This document shows positions 21,186 to 26,265 of a stretch of DNA of 48,682 nucleotides, one piece after another. The notes under the pieces are model-generated. The model was given only the letters and a program-made list of their open reading frames with translations. It was not told the DNA's origin and did not search any database. The stretch is taken from positions 1-48,682 of the IMG/VR virus record IMGVR_UViG_2511231131_000006. The stretch is one strand, 5' to 3'. Positions within the stretch are counted from its first letter, which is position 1, and each line of letters opens with the position of its first letter. The DNA comes from a virus. Lineage: Duplodnaviria > Heunggongvirae > Uroviricota > Caudoviricetes. Both the position numbers and the translations under genes were made by a program.

Positions 21186-21716
21186 ATGGCCGTGCTTCGT
21201 ACGTTACCGGGCAGAATCAAAACTCTGAATACCCGGCGGGTGAATGTCCTGAAGGGTGAACAGCGTCGGGTCAGTGGCAGTGCCCGGGTTTCCCTCAAGC
21301 GTCGTATCTGGCTGAGGGATGCCGGACAGTGCTGTCTCTGTGGGCGTGTGGTTGACCTTTGTGACAGTGAACTCGATCACCGCATTGCACTTCAGTTCGG
21401 TGGTGGTAATGAGGAGACGAATCTCTGGACGCTCTGTACCGAATGCCATCGCCAGAAGTCAGTCAGTGAAACGGCGAGTGGTATGCCGGACCCGACGCTG
21501 CCGGAGGTCATGGCAGGGCAGACGATATCATCGGACTGTGACCCGCCCCGGGGGGGGGATCATCCGGCGAAAAAAACGATCGCCCCGGACACCGCCCCCC
21601 GTCTCATGCAGAGAAAAAATTCCTGTTTCAGGCCAGTTAACATGTTAACTGGCTGCCCGGGCATTTTTTCGGTTTTTATCTTTATTATTCAGTTTGTTGT
21701 GCGAAAAAAATGTTAA
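21186..21716 (+). CDS. HNH endonuclease (packaging-associated); C-terminal extent uncertain
   Basis: HNH motif CCLCGRVVDLCDSELDHRIALQFGGGNEETNLWTLCTECHRQKS. The ORF runs through a G9 homopolymer (21550-21558) into the cos-like region, so the distal about 60 codons may not be real. Confidence 0.55.
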   Translation: MAVLRTLPGRIKTLNTRRVNVLKGEQRRVSGSARVSLKRRIWLRDAGQCCLCGRVVDLCDSELDHRIALQFGGGNEETNLWTLCTECHRQKSVSETASGMPDPTLPEVMAGQTISSDCDPPRGGDHPAKKTIAPDTAPRLMQRKNSCFRPVNMLTGCPGIFSVFIFIIQFVVRKKC

Positions 21717-21831: not shown

Positions 21832-22395
21832 GTGCTGACAACGCAAAAACGAAAATTTGCGCTGGCGCTCATGTCCGGGAAAAACAAAACAGCGTCAGCC
21901 CTTGCCGCCGGTTATTCGGCGAAGACCGCCAGGATTAAAGGCTCGCAGCTGGCAAAAGATCCGGAGGTGCTCGCGTTTATAGCCCGTAAACAGTGCGAAA
22001 CGGTGGAGGTGGATGAGGTTCCTGTTTACCGGCAGAAAAAATCAGAGCAGGAGGATAAACCCCGTCGCCGTGAGGTGGCTGCAATACCACAGCCGGACGA
22101 AACAAATCCGGAGATGCCTCCGCCCGCGGTGATATCTCATGGTATTGAATATATGGAGGATGGTCTTCCCGATCCGGTGAAAGCTATGGGGCAGATCCTG
22201 GTGGAAAACCTGATAATTGACCCGAAACTGGCACTGGATGCGGCCTGGCGACTGGCGCAGTTCACACACCATAAAAAAGGCGATGCCGGTAAAAAATCGG
22301 CAAAAGGTGATGCCGCGAAAAAAGCGGCTAACCGTTTTTCGGTGCCACCATCTCCCCGACTGGTGGTGAATAACCAGAATGAGGAAAGCGGATGA
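21832..22395 (+). CDS. Terminase small subunit
   Basis: 187 aa with GTG start after GGAGGAGG. N-terminal HTH-like segment, directly upstream of and overlapping terL. Confidence 0.65.
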   Translation: MLTTQKRKFALALMSGKNKTASALAAGYSAKTARIKGSQLAKDPEVLAFIARKQCETVEVDEVPVYRQKKSEQEDKPRRREVAAIPQPDETNPEMPPPAVISHGIEYMEDGLPDPVKAMGQILVENLIIDPKLALDAAWRLAQFTHHKKGDAGKKSAKGDAAKKAANRFSVPPSPRLVVNNQNEESG

Positions 22396-24053
22396 TACCT
22401 GTATGGAGCACGGCATGTCCGGACTGGGCAGAGCGCCTGAAAAAGGGACTGTCGATTATTCCGGCTCCGATTTATCCGGACCAGGCTGCACATGCACTGG
22501 CGATTTTTAAACAACTGCGGATTGTGGATGCACCGGGTAGCCCGACGTTCGGGGAGTCCTGCGCACAGTGGGTGTTTGACCTGGTGGCGGCCCTGTTTGG
22601 CTCCTATGATGCGCAGACCGGTGTACGCCATATCAAGGAAGTTTTTATCCTTATCCCCAAGAAAAACAGTAAGTCCACGCTGGCCGCGGGGATCATGATG
22701 ACGGCGCTGTTACTGAACTGGCGGCAGGCGGCGGGCTACACCATTCTGGCCCCGACCGTGGAGGTGGCGGCTAACGCCTTCAACCCTGCCAGGGATATGG
22801 TACGACGGGACGATGATCTGGATGACCTCTGTCAGGTGCAGACACATATCCGGACCATCACCCATCGGGTGACGGACACCACCCTGAAGGTGGTGGCAGC
22901 CGATCCGAATACGGTGTCCGGTATCAAGTCCGTGGGGACACTGATTGATGAACTGTGGCTGTTTGGCAAGCAGTACAAAGCGGAAGACATGCTACGTGAA
23001 GCCATCGGCGGGCTTGCCTCCCGTCCGGAAGGATTTGTGGTGTACACAACCACCCAGTCGAATGAACCGCCTGCCGGGGTGTTCAGACAGAAACTGCAGT
23101 ACGCCCGGGATGTCCGTGACGGCAAAATTCATGATCCGCACTTTCTGCCGGTGATTTTTGAGCATCCTCCTGAAATGGTGGAAAGCGGGGCTCACCTGCT
23201 GATGGAAAACCTCGCCATGGTTAACCCGAATCTCGGTTATTCGGTGGATGAGGCTTTTCTGTACCGGGAGTACCGTAAAGCCCGGGAGGCTGGTGAGGAA
23301 GCATTTCGTGGCTTCATGTCAAAACACGCCAATGTGGAAATCGGTCTTGCCCTGCGTTCTGACCGCTGGGCGGGCGCGGATTTCTGGGAGCAGCAGGGCA
23401 GGCGCGTCAGCCTGGACGATATCCTGCAGCGCGCTGATGTGGTGACGGTGGGGATTGACGGCGGGGGCCTGGATGATCTGCTGGGAATGTACGTGATTGG
23501 CCGTGACAGGGAAACCCGCGAATGGCTGGGCTGGGGCCATGCCTGGGTGCATGAAACCGCGGTGGTCAGACGGAAGAGTGAGGCATCCCGGTTTCAGGAT
23601 TTTGTGGCCTGTGGAGACATGACGATTGTCCGTCGGGTCGGGGATGACACGGCGGAAGTGGCGGAGTATGTGCGTCGTATTCATGAGGCTGAGTTACTGG
23701 ATCATATCGGTATTGACCCGTCAGGTGTGGGGCAGATTCTGGATTCACTGGCGGAAGCCGGGATCCCCGATGAGAGTGTGGTGGGGATAAGCCAGGGCTG
23801 GAAGCTGGGCGGGGCCATCAAAACCACCGAGCGCAAACTGGCTGAGGGAGTGCTGGTGCATGGTGGTCAGCCACTGATGGCCTGGTGCGTTGGCAATGCC
23901 CGGGTGGAGCCTAAAGGTAACGCCATTCTTATCACCAAACAGGCCAGCGGACGGGGAAAAATTGACCCGCTGATGGCGCTCTTCAATGCGGTGTCCCTGA
24001 TGTCCCTGAATCCGGAACCGAAAAAGAAAGCGTATGAGGTTTTTTTCATATAA
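22392..24053 (+). CDS. Terminase large subunit
   Basis: 553 aa with ATPase-like N-terminal region and nuclease-like C-terminal region (VGIDGGGLDD, IGIDPSGVG). Confidence 0.85.
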   Translation: MIPVWSTACPDWAERLKKGLSIIPAPIYPDQAAHALAIFKQLRIVDAPGSPTFGESCAQWVFDLVAALFGSYDAQTGVRHIKEVFILIPKKNSKSTLAAGIMMTALLLNWRQAAGYTILAPTVEVAANAFNPARDMVRRDDDLDDLCQVQTHIRTITHRVTDTTLKVVAADPNTVSGIKSVGTLIDELWLFGKQYKAEDMLREAIGGLASRPEGFVVYTTTQSNEPPAGVFRQKLQYARDVRDGKIHDPHFLPVIFEHPPEMVESGAHLLMENLAMVNPNLGYSVDEAFLYREYRKAREAGEEAFRGFMSKHANVEIGLALRSDRWAGADFWEQQGRRVSLDDILQRADVVTVGIDGGGLDDLLGMYVIGRDRETREWLGWGHAWVHETAVVRRKSEASRFQDFVACGDMTIVRRVGDDTAEVAEYVRRIHEAELLDHIGIDPSGVGQILDSLAEAGIPDESVVGISQGWKLGGAIKTTERKLAEGVLVHGGQPLMAWCVGNARVEPKGNAILITKQASGRGKIDPLMALFNAVSLMSLNPEPKKKAYEVFFI

Positions 24054-24116
24054 CCCTGCTCACCCTGTAACCATCATGAACCGCTGCGGCGGTTTTTTTA
24101 TTTTCAGGAGGCTGAT

Positions 24117-26054
24117 GTGACTCTTAAACGGGCCTGTTCCCTGCTGACGGTGAAATCCTTCAGTGAGGATGAACGGGTGATCACCGGGATTGCGTCAACG
24201 CCTTCTCCGGATCGGGATGGTGACATCCTGGAGCCGGAGGGGGCGGAGTTTGGCAGTGCGATCCCGTTTCTCTGGCAGCATGACTATTCCCGTCCGGTGG
24301 GCCAGTGTACGGTACGCCGGGTCAGTGAAGGTCTGGAAATCACGGCAACACTGGTGAAGCCCGTACCGGATATGCCGTCGCAGCTGGCTGCCCGGCTGGA
24401 TGAAGCCTGGGCTGCCATTAAGACCGGGCTGGTCAGGGGGCTTTCTGTGGGCTTCCGGCCCCATGAATACACTTATCTGGACGGAGGCGGACTGCATTTT
24501 CTGCGCTGGGAACTGATGGAGGTGTCTGCCGTCACCGTGCCCGCGAATGCGGAATGCACCATCCGGACCATTAAATCTTTCGGCAGCCCGTTTTCTGCCG
24601 CGTCCGGCAACCGGAGACCGGTGGTGAAAATCGCATCTTCTGCCGGCGCTTCGGCACAGTCAATAACCTCTTTTCATAAGGAAAAGTCAGCAATGAATAC
24701 TGGTGAACAGATTAAAAGTTTTGAAAACAAGCGTGCGGCGCTGGCAGCCTCCCTTGAGGAGATCATGAACAAAGCCGCAGAGGAAGGCCGCACACTGGAT
24801 GTGGAAGAGGAAGAGCACTACGACAACACCGCAGCGGAAATCCGTCAGGTGGATGCGCACCTGAAGCGTCTGCGTGAACTGGAAACCAGTAAGGCCGCCA
24901 CGGCACAGCCGGTGAAACAGGCCGGTAACGGGAATGTGGCCACGGTGGCTTCAGCGCCGGTGATCTGTGTTGAGCAGAAACTGGAGAAGGGGATTGGTTT
25001 CGCCCGCTTTGCCAAATCACTGGCCGCGGCTAAAGGTGTCCGCTCTGAAGCCCTGGAAGTGGCCCGTCGTCAGTATCCGGATGACAGTCGTCTGCATCAT
25101 GTCCTGAAATCGGCGGTGGGGGCAGGGACCACCACGGACCCACAGTGGGCAGGCAGCCTGTCTGAATATCAGGAATATGCGCAGGACTTTATTGATTACC
25201 TGCGTCCGCAGACCATTATCGGGCGATTTGGTCAGGGCGGGATCCCTGCACTTCGTCTGGTGCCGTTCAATATCCGCGTGCATGCCCAGGTGTCCGGCGG
25301 TGCTGCCGGCTGGGTGGGGGAGGGTAAGGCCAGACCCCTGACGAAGTTTGATTTTGAGTCCATCACCTTCAGTCATGCGAAGGTGTCGGCCATTGCGGTA
25401 CTGACGGAAGAGCTGATCCGCTTTTCCAGTCCGGCAGCTGATGCACTGGTCCGTAATGCGCTGGCAGAAGCGGTGGTGGCGCGTCTGGACACAGACTTTG
25501 TGGACCCGAAAAAAGCTGCAGTGGCAGATGTCTCCCCGGCGTCCATCACCCATGATGTGAAGGGCACGGCATCAACCGGTAACCCGGATGCGGATGCCGA
25601 GGCCGCGTTTGGCCAGTTTGTGACGGCAAATCTGCAGCCCACTGGTGCTGTCTGGCTGATGTCCAGCACGAATGCCCTGGCGCTGTCCATGCGTAAAAAT
25701 GCGCTGGGTCAGAAGGAATATCCGGACATGACCCTGCTGGGCGGGACCTTTCAGGGGCTTCCGGTGATTGTCTCCCAGTATGTGGGTGACCAGCTGGTAC
25801 TGGTGAATGCACCGGATATTTATCTGGCGGATGACGGCGGTGTGGCAGTGGATATGTCCCGTGAAGCGTCACTGGAAATGCAGTCTGAGCCGGGCGGCGA
25901 CAGCACCACACCGTCGCCGGTGGAGCTGGTTTCCATGTTCCAGACCGGCAGCGTGGCCATCCGTGCGGAGCGCTGGATCAACTGGCGTCGTCGCCGTACT
26001 GCGGCGGTGGCTGTGATCACCGGTGTGAACTACGGCAGTGCGTCCGGCGGCTGA
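24117..26054 (+). CDS. Fused prohead protease (HK97 family) - scaffold-like linker - major capsid protein
   Basis: 645 aa with GTG start after AGGAGG. N-terminal ~150 aa protease-like, a coiled-coil acidic linker, then an HK97-fold-like capsid region. Confidence 0.75.
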   Translation: MTLKRACSLLTVKSFSEDERVITGIASTPSPDRDGDILEPEGAEFGSAIPFLWQHDYSRPVGQCTVRRVSEGLEITATLVKPVPDMPSQLAARLDEAWAAIKTGLVRGLSVGFRPHEYTYLDGGGLHFLRWELMEVSAVTVPANAECTIRTIKSFGSPFSAASGNRRPVVKIASSAGASAQSITSFHKEKSAMNTGEQIKSFENKRAALAASLEEIMNKAAEEGRTLDVEEEEHYDNTAAEIRQVDAHLKRLRELETSKAATAQPVKQAGNGNVATVASAPVICVEQKLEKGIGFARFAKSLAAAKGVRSEALEVARRQYPDDSRLHHVLKSAVGAGTTTDPQWAGSLSEYQEYAQDFIDYLRPQTIIGRFGQGGIPALRLVPFNIRVHAQVSGGAAGWVGEGKARPLTKFDFESITFSHAKVSAIAVLTEELIRFSSPAADALVRNALAEAVVARLDTDFVDPKKAAVADVSPASITHDVKGTASTGNPDADAEAAFGQFVTANLQPTGAVWLMSSTNALALSMRKNALGQKEYPDMTLLGGTFQGLPVIVSQYVGDQLVLVNAPDIYLADDGGVAVDMSREASLEMQSEPGGDSTTPSPVELVSMFQTGSVAIRAERWINWRRRRTAAVAVITGVNYGSASGG

Positions 26055-26265
26055 GTCTGATGAGGAGGGCGGGAGGTGAGAGCGTCCCGCAGTAACTGAT
26101 GGCAAAAATCCGATATCTGCAGGGTACACATGATGCCCGGCCCGGGGATATCCGGGATGTCGCACAGCCGTGTGCGGAGGTGCTGGTTCGCCTGGGAAAG
26201 GCGGAGTACATCACAGCGCGACGTCCGGCGGGTCAGAAAAAGAAACATGATGCGGAGCATAGCGA

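Follow-up and report, generated by a model that had tools for sequence, protein, structure and literature searches.

The locus and its domains

The window, by which we mean the whole 48,682-nt stretch of DNA that was analyzed, carries at positions 24117..26054 of the plus strand a 645-aa ORF (~69 kDa) in which a prohead protease, a linker, a delta/scaffold domain, and an HK97-fold major capsid protein follow one another. The 645 codons run without interruption from a GTG start codon, which is located 5 nt 3' of the Shine-Dalgarno (SD) sequence AGGAGG (24106..24111, +; pairing with the 16S 3' end of -10.3 kcal/mol). A putative terminator-like hairpin followed by a T-run (24078..24095, +), found by a pattern scan and folding, lies between terL and the capsid gene, and the T-rich stretch upstream of the full-length SD is kept in relatives. 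The source genome, E. coli O55:H7 TB182A, contains a 100% identical ORF, with coordinates and start in agreement with the RefSeq annotation. The 645-aa protein has the RefSeq entry WP_000173049.1 and is named there 'phage major capsid protein'; elsewhere the database labels for the gene are inconsistent and include 'prohead protease', 'major capsid protein', and 'capsid and scaffold'. The family profile phrog_617 covers the protein over its full length, with residues 1-639 matching profile positions 7-626 of 626 (E=3.6e-258).

The fusion gene is preceded by terS (21832..22395) and, immediately 5' of it, by the terminase large subunit gene terL (22392..24053, +), which is identified by Pfam TerL_ATPase and TerL_nuclease matches and occupies a conserved place in the order. 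On the 3' side of the capsid gene lie a conserved 73-aa ORF (26099..26320, +; phrog_829, E=7e-38), which has tblastn matches at the equivalent place in most enterobacterial-type loci, and the HK97-type portal gene (26266..27630, +; PF04860, E=3e-80; TIGR01537, E=1e-105). The flanking-gene coordinates and domain matches thus bear out the order terS-terL-fusion-portal proposed in an earlier note on this DNA, and this order is conserved among relatives down to 45% identity. A programmed -1 frameshift from the portal gene into the downstream ORF at CGAAAATGA was considered and dropped; ATGA-type stop/start overlaps with variable preceding sequence are the norm in relatives.

Within the ORF, the peptidase S78 (HK97 gp4-like) prohead protease domain, assigned by PF04586 and hhalign, occupies residues 1-155 (24117..24581, +). 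It is joined to the rest of the protein by a linker of residues 156-192 (24582..24692, +) that is hypervariable, basic, and disordered, as judged from model confidence, alignments, and pI: pLDDT in the AF2 model is <50 over residues 143-190, the pI of the segment is 11.1, and it is indel-rich and poorly conserved both in alignment A1 and in the representative set. The delta/scaffold domain follows at residues 193-~331 (24693..25109, +), where the C-terminal boundary is a predicted one. The AF2 model shows an acidic helical hairpin at residues 195-261 (pLDDT 85-90) and further helices at 293-331, the acidic coiled-coil part (193-290) has a pI of 5.0, and the match to TIGR01554 major_cap_HK97 (residues 204-584; 79.4 against a cut-off of 27.5) begins within the delta domain. 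The earlier note had placed a coiled-coil acidic linker between protease and capsid. An acidic coiled coil does exist, but the segment next to the protease is the basic, disordered one, and the acidic part belongs to the capsid protein as its N-terminal delta/scaffold domain and is no mere linker.

The HK97-fold shell domain covers residues ~332-645 (25110..26051, +), and its parts occur in the expected secondary-structure order of N-arm, E-loop (387-417), spine helix (439-462), and A and P domains. Pfam Phage_capsid (PF05065) matches residues 386-635 with 55.4 bits against a threshold of 24.2. Because a direct PDB sequence search returned weak capsid matches alone (E=0.004) and hhalign of the family profile against HK97 gp5 was not significant (probability 0.2%), fold comparison was used for this domain. 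Foldseek with the AF2 model retrieves the Bxb1 structure 9d9w (E=1e-14) and the HK97 structures 2fs3 and 8cfa, the latter two with a target-normalized TM of up to 0.74. The capsid-like domain that had been proposed for this ORF is therefore confirmed by PF05065, TIGR01554, and the HK97 fold found by Foldseek, and the profiles, the AF2/Foldseek results, and the intact reading frame together uphold the placement of protease and capsid in one ORF upstream of the portal gene.

A conserved internal start at the protease/scaffold junction

At the junction between linker and delta domain, a Shine-Dalgarno-like AAGGAA (24678..24683, +) lies 9 nt 5' of an in-frame ATG (24693..24695, +), which encodes Met193 and is the proposed start of a nested 453-aa (~48 kDa) delta-capsid product. 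The pairing calculated for AAGGAA is -6.2 kcal/mol, a moderate value that is in the top 15% of the in-frame positions of its own ORF. Met193 is invariant in alignment A1, where it borders the hypervariable linker, and in 151 representatives the junction column holds M in 120, V in 9, and L in 4 (M/V/L in 133 of 143 occupied rows). A serious, if doubtful, alternative to nested translation is that the 645-aa fusion is the sole product, with protease and shell present 1:1, and that the SD and ATG at the junction are the relic of a two-gene arrangement or are kept for a peptide constraint or translational pausing.

At the DNA level, a start codon is located within 3 codons of the junction in 59/59 distinct related loci (58 ATG, 1 GTG), and an SD core is present at 58 of these 59 junctions against a background of 11-15%; the loci share phylogeny, so these counts overstate the number of independent observations. 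The median SD pairing at the 59 junctions is -5.6 kcal/mol, as compared with -2.4 for background. The diversity of the set comes from a scan of viral contigs, since the peptide patterns used to scan genome contigs were too specific and gave 8 loci. A relic should decay within a hypervariable, indel-rich linker, yet ATG and SD core persist down to 45% identity. Indeed, in relatives at 45-50% identity the internal SD is a full AGGAGG (-10.8 to -12.3 kcal/mol), and in this distant set information content stands out at -12..-9 and over the ATG but nowhere else. PAJU2 gp03 has the same internal AGGAGG-ATG signal at its junction.

The constraint, moreover, acts at the nucleotide level, which argues against a peptide constraint. 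Gly codons within the internal SD window of enterobacterial relatives are GGA in 28 of 28 cases, while GGA makes up 8% of Gly codons elsewhere, and the differing junction peptides KKGN, HKEK, and PQEG all encode AGGA or GGAGG. The position of the proposed start also coincides with that of stand-alone capsid genes: the capsid gene of four capsid-only relatives (P0256, P0195, P0235, and P0259) starts at the Met193 position, and in the two-gene loci L086, L010, and Burkholderia phage vB_FUBS1 the capsid gene begins exactly there. A second candidate, Met217, which is located 3 nt after GAGGAG, was rejected; the spacing is too short, the codon is inside the delta helix, and capsid-only relatives begin at Met193. 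Likewise, the out-of-frame TAA in cATAAGGAA, considered as an ancestral protease stop by comparison with Burkholderia vB_FUBS1, was set aside since the pattern is inconsistent among relatives. When the mRNA near each start was folded, neither region was significantly structured relative to shuffled sequence (z=+0.6 for the internal start and -1.2 for the full-length one); part of the internal SD might be masked by a weak hairpin.

Relative SD strength points in both directions. In the window and in all enterobacterial-type relatives, the full-length SD is the stronger (-9.3 to -10.3 versus -5.6 kcal/mol for the internal one), as would be expected if the fusion were the only product, whereas in distant relatives the internal site exceeds the full-length SD in strength by a wide margin. 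The full-length start of the E. coli clade uses GTG, the weaker codon. Further points on the side of a sole 645-aa product are the actinophage fusions, which are annotated as single products, and our own packing estimate, by which ~415 N-terminal parts of ~36 kDa, all located inside a T=7 procapsid, would take up ~40% of its interior, so that a procapsid made of fusion subunits alone is not obviously impossible. The same side is favored by our literature search, which found no experimental evidence of a second product: it returned no protein-level or ribosome-profiling data for the phrog_617-type fusion family and no usable virion proteomics or N-terminal sequencing for 2851, BP-4795, YYZ-2008, FSL SP-016, or PAJU2.

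Taken with the junction data, nested translation of a 453-aa scaffold-capsid product from Met193 is what the sequences suggest. The description of the gene as encoding one polypeptide holds in that there is a single ORF, but the conserved internal SD and ATG suggest that the outcome is not simply one product. The literature searched contained no description of a nested internal start in protease-capsid fusions.

The protease domain and the integrity of the gene

The proposal that the fusion brings its own maturation protease depends on the state of the N-terminal domain. We consider it very unlikely that this domain is an inactive protease remnant serving as extra scaffold, with maturation carried out by a host or other phage protease or not at all. 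This reading could draw on the stricter equivalog model TIGR01543 proheadase_HK97, where the score of 44.6 is under the curated cut-off of 59, and on Foldseek, where the top PDB matches of the AF2 protease-domain model (pLDDT 81.7) are herpesvirus proteases (KSHV and HCMV), in the direction of the assemblin-like fold looked for in S78, but the similarity is weak (E=0.02-0.25, TM ~0.3). Against it stand a Pfam Peptidase_S78 (PF04586) match over residues 48-153 at 34.7 bits, above the 21-bit gathering threshold, and an hhalign alignment to residues 12-163 of HK97 gp4 with 96.8% probability, which together confirm the assignment of the N-terminal ~150 aa to the HK97-family prohead proteases made in the earlier note. 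In this alignment, His65 and Ser114 of gp4, which we take to be the catalytic residues of MEROPS S78, fall on His55 and Ser110 of the window protein.

The codons of these putative catalytic residues, placed by the hhalign register, are located at 24279..24281 (+) for His55 and 24444..24446 (+) for Ser110. Among 151 representatives (38-54% identity), the His55 column holds His in 145 of 145 occupied rows, the other 6 being gaps, and the Ser110 column holds Ser in 145 of 151, with the rest almost all gaps. His55, Ser110, Glu135, and Ser137 are near-invariant in this set, the last two forming an E135-x-S137 motif. In addition, the region from terS to the tail genes shows no second gene for a prohead protease. 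Self-processing is plausible given how little the catalytic His and Ser vary, and the protease domain is predicted from its sequence to be active.

As for the gene itself, its status as a genuine fusion of protease, scaffold, and capsid is in our view nearly certain. Of 5426 complete E. coli genomes, 1250 carry it, at up to 7 copies per genome, with a copy spanning at least 80% of the gene in 1247 of them, and 95 phage records match at >=90% DNA identity. The inducible, isolated phages 2851, BP-4795, 1717, YYZ-2008, FSL SP-016, and PAJU2 carry the fusion, the first four of these being Stx1a/Stx2c/Stx2a-converting phages. Nearly all of the 120 closest protein clusters are ~645 aa in length and contain both domains, the same fusion is found in 142 of the best 150 50%-identity cluster representatives (38-54% identity), and both the protease and the capsid domain are under strong purifying selection. 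The converse arrangement is rare: among distant relatives, separate ORFs occur in L010 and Burkholderia phage vB_FUBS1, and in L086 the ATG directly follows an in-frame TAA.

Such two-gene relatives, and the fact that PGAP flags other genes of the host prophage as pseudogenes, are what could be cited for an artefact or pseudogene in which two genes of a decaying prophage were joined by a lost stop or frameshift, a reading with practically no probability given the identical ORF in a finished genome, the isolated phages, and the systematic error common to all assemblies that it would need, hardly credible given the range of sequencing platforms and two decades of data. The comparison with homologues for a missed frameshift or stop, which the earlier note had proposed, thus excludes an artefact, because thousands of independent assemblies, and the representatives above, share the fusion. 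The same note had treated homologues with two separate genes as a sign of artefact; this does not hold, as a few distant relatives are two-gene and the fusion here is genuine.

Relation to known systems and a proposed assembly route

As such, the fusion is nothing unusual: RefSeq annotates it, and the protease-capsid arrangement is already recognized in PAJU2 gp03, in phrog_617, in Stx phages, and in actinophage 'capsid and protease fusion' genes. PAJU2 gp03, which is annotated 'major head protein; prohead protease fused capsid protein', is 48% identical to the window protein at a tblastn coverage of 100%, and the Stx-phage homologues (2851 gp17 and those of BP-4795, 1717, and YYZ-2008) show 95-96% identity and the same full-length architecture. 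In PAJU2 and the Stx phages the module order is terS-terL-fusion-small ORF(s)-portal, as in the window. Nothing essential differs between the window gene and the PAJU2/phrog_617 family, of which it is a member. Fusions of protease, scaffold, and capsid in one ORF also occur in NCBIfam NF045541 (prohead protease/major capsid protein fusion protein) and in actinophages. NF045541, however, is a different sequence family, to which the window protein scores 52.7 bits against a cut-off of 525 and over residues 48-264 only. What appears to be new here is the conserved internal start, which probably gives a capsid protein without the protease as well. Roughly one complete E. coli genome in four contains the head module concerned, frequently as multiple copies, and long-tailed Stx1a/Stx2c-converting phages have it too.

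Comparison with HK97 shows which parts are shared. HK97 gp4 is a homologous protease in which the catalytic His and Ser align with those of the window protein, and HK97 gp5 has the same capsid fold with an N-terminal helical scaffold (delta) domain fused to the shell, as in the window. HK97, however, uses two genes in the order portal-protease-capsid, whereas the window has one ORF before the portal gene; the C-terminal segment of gp4 (residues 164-225) has no counterpart in the window protein; and the delta domain comprises ~139 aa as opposed to 102 aa in HK97. Protease targeting by covalent tethering, as proposed for the fusion, can be set against targeting by this gp4 segment.

Precedents for a nested start come from other capsid systems. 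In lambda C/Nu3, HSV-1 UL26/UL26.5, and HFTV1 gp17/gp17.5, the protease lies at the N-terminus of the long product, the short product arises from an in-frame internal start, which is preceded by an SD in lambda, and the protease:scaffold ratio is thereby set. The window resembles all three in having an in-frame internal start, with its own SD, between protease and scaffold. It differs in what the short product would be: free scaffold in lambda C/Nu3, HSV-1 UL26/UL26.5, and HFTV1 gp17/gp17.5, but scaffold plus shell in the window. The two products have been demonstrated experimentally in the lambda, HSV-1, and HFTV1 systems, whereas those of the window are deduced from its sequence, and the lambda protease belongs to a peptidase family other than the S78 of the window. 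Nested protease/scaffold genes with a protease-bearing long product and a co-terminal short one have been described (bioRxiv 10.64898/2026.09.13.751334). A preprint on CBASS escape was rejected as a precedent since it concerns scaffold-protease rather than protease-capsid fusions.

On balance, we favor the view that the protease-capsid fusions of this large lineage of proteobacterial phages are nested genes that would yield mixed procapsids in which the protease dose is set translationally. Two co-terminal products would most likely be made, the 645-aa fusion from the GTG at 24117 and the 453-aa delta-capsid protein from the SD at 24678-24683 and the ATG at 24693. In the procapsid formed by these subunits, the N-terminal parts would face inward, and the protease would be brought into the shell by covalent attachment rather than by a C-terminal segment as in free HK97 gp4. 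The frequency of one initiation event relative to the other would in this way set how many proteases each procapsid receives. Once confined, the protease would cut off itself, the linker, and the delta domain to leave the mature capsid protein, which is probably ~33 kDa with a predicted N-terminus near residue 332. The cleavage positions, initiation at Met193, and the proportion of the two products are predictions in this scheme. This scheme would apply the logic of lambda C/Nu3, HSV-1 UL26/UL26.5, and HFTV1 gp17/gp17.5 to a scaffold and capsid protein that share one chain.

Taken as a whole, the statement that this is an ancient, widespread three-in-one head gene that includes nested translation of a delta-capsid product seems to us reasonably probable. 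If it is true, the principle of lambda C/Nu3 and herpesvirus UL26/UL26.5 extends to HK97-type capsid proteins with built-in scaffolds, and if the internal start is used, the locus offers a compact and easily mutated system for the number of proteases per procapsid and for protease targeting.

The shell of the E. coli clade may depart from HK97 in one further respect. The chain-mail triad of HK97 consists of K169, N356, and the catalytic Glu E363. The equivalents of K169 and N356 in the window protein appear to be R406 in the E-loop (25332..25334, +) and G611 (25947..25949, +), in a register that comes from a low-probability hhalign alignment, co-variation, and position in the E-loop/P-domain secondary structure rather than from structural superposition. 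Position 406 is K in 130 of the 151 representatives and R in the window and the E. coli clade, and position 611 is N in 125 of the 151 and G in the window. The complete K/N/E triad is present in 123 of the 151 relatives and is otherwise lost together, with R406, G611, and E618 in the window. Relative to the phrog_617 family consensus, in which the crosslink Lys and Asn are mostly kept, the E. coli clade thus combines a GTG full-length start with the apparent absence of both residues. With Arg406 and Gly611 in the places of the crosslinking Lys and Asn, the mature shell of this clade probably lacks chain-mail crosslinks. For work on stability, the correlated loss of both residues in this clade would provide a natural pair of closely related capsids, one with chain-mail and one without it.

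Proposed internal start within the fusion gene

The fusion gene occupies 24117..26054 (+), where analysis of the window's ORFs gives 645 codons with no interruption, opening with a GTG located 5 nt 3' of AGGAGG. The earlier note described one polypeptide; a single ORF is indeed present, but that description missed a conserved internal SD and ATG at the protease/delta junction. At Met193 (ATG 24693) the linker, hypervariable and rich in indels, gives way to the conserved delta domain. Close homologues show no variation at this residue, and its column across 151 representatives holds M (120), V (9) or L (4). Capsid-only relatives (protein representatives P0256, P0195, P0235 and P0259) begin exactly at its equivalent, as do the capsid genes of two-gene loci. 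A start codon lies ≤3 codons from Met193 in all 59 distinct DNA junctions (ATG in 58, GTG in 1), and an SD core 4-mer is found at -18..-5 in 58 of the 59, versus 11–15% of other in-frame positions.

The SD is AAGGAA or AAAGGAA in enterobacterial-type junctions and AGGAGG in relatives of 45–50% identity, where its pairing energy reaches -10.8 to -12.3 kcal/mol and it ranks in the top 0–0.5% of in-frame positions in their own ORFs; PAJU2 gp03 reads AGGAGG, 7 nt, ATG. The distant relatives have an internal SD that far exceeds their full-length SD in strength. The full-length start codon is GTG in the E. coli clade versus ATG in other clades. In the distant set, information content is near zero except at -12..-9 and at the ATG. 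The constraint at the junction acts on nucleotides, not on the peptide: the differing peptides HKEK, KKGN and PQEG all encode the purine motif, and Gly codons in the SD window are GGA in 28 of 28 cases in the enterobacterial group, versus 8% of the Gly codons outside it in these ORFs.

We consider it fairly probable that nested translation yields two products from the fusion gene. A more doubtful reading is that the 645-aa product alone is made; in its favor, the internal SD of the window (AAGGAA, 24678-24683) is moderate, its -6.2 kcal/mol placing it among the top 15% of positions in the ORF, and the SD of the full-length start is strong. Our literature search on nested start use in the fusion family found no experimental data.

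Domain organization and proposed assembly

In Pfam, Peptidase_S78 (residues 48-153) and Phage_capsid (386-635) both exceed their gathering thresholds. Residues 204-584 match TIGR01554 (HK97 major capsid), and the full length matches the 626-position profile of phrog_617 ('major head protein') with E=3.6e-258. A profile built from 36 diverse family members aligns with residues 12-163 of HK97 gp4 at 96.8% probability, placing His55 and Ser110 opposite gp4 His65 and Ser114, which we take to be the catalytic residues (MEROPS S78). His55, Ser110 and an E135-x-S137 motif are essentially invariant across the 151 sequences (38–54% identity), and we regard an inactive protease domain as effectively excluded. 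The C-terminal 60 residues of gp4 have no counterpart in the window protein.

The AlphaFold2 model of the 645-aa protein (mean pLDDT 75.7) contains a beta-rich domain (4-142), a disordered stretch (143-190), a confident helical hairpin (195-261), further helices (293-331), and an alpha/beta domain in HK97 order, with N-arm helix, E-loop hairpin (387-417), spine helix (439-462), and A and P domains. In Foldseek, the model matches solved capsids of the HK97 fold (Bxb1, E=1e-14; HK97 chains, target-normalised TM up to 0.74), and the protease domain modelled alone (pLDDT 81.7) gives herpesvirus proteases as its top, weak PDB matches. The earlier note had proposed an acidic coiled-coil linker; an acidic part exists as the delta/scaffold domain of the capsid protein (193-290, pI 5.0), but the segment directly after the protease (156-192) is basic and disordered, with a pI of 11.1.

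Under nested translation, the most likely products would be two co-terminal proteins, a 69-kDa protease-linker-delta-capsid fusion and a 48-kDa delta-capsid protein, which would co-assemble. The covalent tether on fusion subunits would bring the protease into the shell, replacing the absent gp4 C-terminal segment. After assembly, the protease would cut away the delta domain, the linker and itself, so that a ~33-kDa shell protein remains that starts near residue 332, a boundary we infer from the model and the family alignment. The same nested protease/scaffold logic is seen in lambda C/Nu3, HSV-1 UL26/UL26.5 and the recently described HFTV1 gp17/gp17.5 (bioRxiv 10.64898/2026.09.13.751334); unlike in those systems, the short product here would include the shell protein.

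Distribution and gene order

A prophage of E. coli O55:H7 strain TB182A is 100% identical in DNA to the window, and RefSeq annotates the identical CDS there as WP_000173049.1, 'phage major capsid protein'. Of 5426 complete E. coli genomes, 1250 contain the fusion gene, in up to seven copies each; it is also present, at ≥90% DNA identity, in 95 phage records, mostly Stx1a-, Stx2c- and Stx2a-converting phages. Isolated phages with the fusion include 2851, 1717, YYZ-2008, BP-4795, Salmonella FSL SP-016, Pseudomonas PAJU2 and a Rhizobium phage. Nearly all of the 120 closest 90%-identity clusters, from many Enterobacterales genera, are ~645 aa long and have both Pfam domains. When 1.84 billion representatives were searched exhaustively, the best 150 (38–54% identity) comprised 142 full fusions, 5 capsid-only and 3 truncated proteins. 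The fusion is thereby confirmed, the earlier interpretation was essentially right, and an artefact is effectively excluded. Two-gene homologues, which had been proposed as the mark of an artefact, do exist but fail in that role; they are rare and distant, such as locus L086, where one in-frame TAA immediately precedes the capsid ATG, and locus L010, with protease and capsid in separate frames. A copy in an Arsenophonus endosymbiont of an insect (L008, 5001..6928) is broken by several frameshifts and stops, a decaying prophage in contrast with the intact copies elsewhere.

The flanking genes are as previously described, with terS (21832..22395) and terL (22392..24053) upstream and an HK97-type portal (26266..27630) downstream. 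Between the capsid and the portal is a conserved 73-aa ORF (26099..26320, phrog_829), whose overlap with the annotated portal start is 55 nt; small ORFs at this gap also occur in PAJU2 and Burkholderia phage vB_FUBS1. A 407-aa ORF (27627..28850) follows the portal, and then head-tail connector, head-closure, gp10-like and tail genes. Across 59 distinct loci, with identity as low as 45% and alphaproteobacterial hosts among them, the order HNH-terS-terL-fusion-(small ORF)-portal-ORF-adaptor is kept; therefore, the order that had been called unusual is a lineage trait. vB_FUBS1 has the same order with separate protease and capsid genes, and the order predates the fusion. The HNH endonuclease ORF directly upstream of terS (21186..21716), kept in most relatives, is 176 aa in the window, and its source-genome copy (locus L001, 3070..3420) is marked an incomplete pseudogene by RefSeq. 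HNH-terminase association is usual in cos phages. Between terL and the capsid gene is a terminator-like hairpin, GAACCGC-TGCG-GCGGTTT followed by a T-run (24078..24095), and relatives conserve a T-rich stretch just 5' of the capsid SD. In the MFE fold, the full-length SD is also paired with sequence 3' of it, though not significantly (z=-1.2).

The fusion gene is of a type already known, and it is very common among E. coli prophages. The PAJU2 gp03 record reads 'prohead protease fused capsid protein', and Stx-phage labels vary among 'prohead protease', 'major head protein/prohead protease' and 'capsid and scaffold'. The NCBIfam fusion model describes a different fusion family, the window protein scoring 52.7 bits, below its 525-bit cut-off. 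What our analysis adds is a testable, well-supported hypothesis of nested translation and the loss of crosslink residues.

Crosslink residues and the portal region

The equivalents of HK97 Lys169, Asn356 and Glu363, in a register taken from a weak alignment, are residues 406 (E-loop; 25332..25334), 611 and 618 (P-domain strand; 25947..25949 and 25968..25970). Of 151 representatives, 123 have the K/N/E triad, and in most of the rest the residues are lost together. The triad is kept in Salmonella- and Enterobacter-type relatives at ~76% identity; the window protein and its E. coli clade have R/G/E. These patterns suggest chain-mail in most of the family and its loss from the Stx-phage-type E. 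coli clade, a loss that we infer, given the register, with support from co-variation.

PGAP merges the portal and the next ORF (26266..28850, junction 27627..27630) into one 'frameshifted' portal pseudogene, and phrog_2271, an 859-position 'portal' profile, spans both. Of 46 related loci, 44 have the two as separate ORFs and 2 have them fused; the separate cases comprise 29 ATGA overlaps, 14 other short stop/start overlaps and 1 separate pair in the same frame. The normal arrangement therefore seems to be two genes coupled in translation, and the pseudogene label seems to be an artefact of annotation. Relatives with identity as low as 45% have a homologue of the 407-aa ORF after the portal. 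The C-terminus of the 407-aa ORF has a weak, sub-threshold CBM_5_12 match. Finally, a 162-nt (54-aa) tandem repeat is present in this ORF in 3.3 copies with 90% identity (27852..28384), and the number of copies seems to vary among Stx phages, since megablast alignments fragment at the array.
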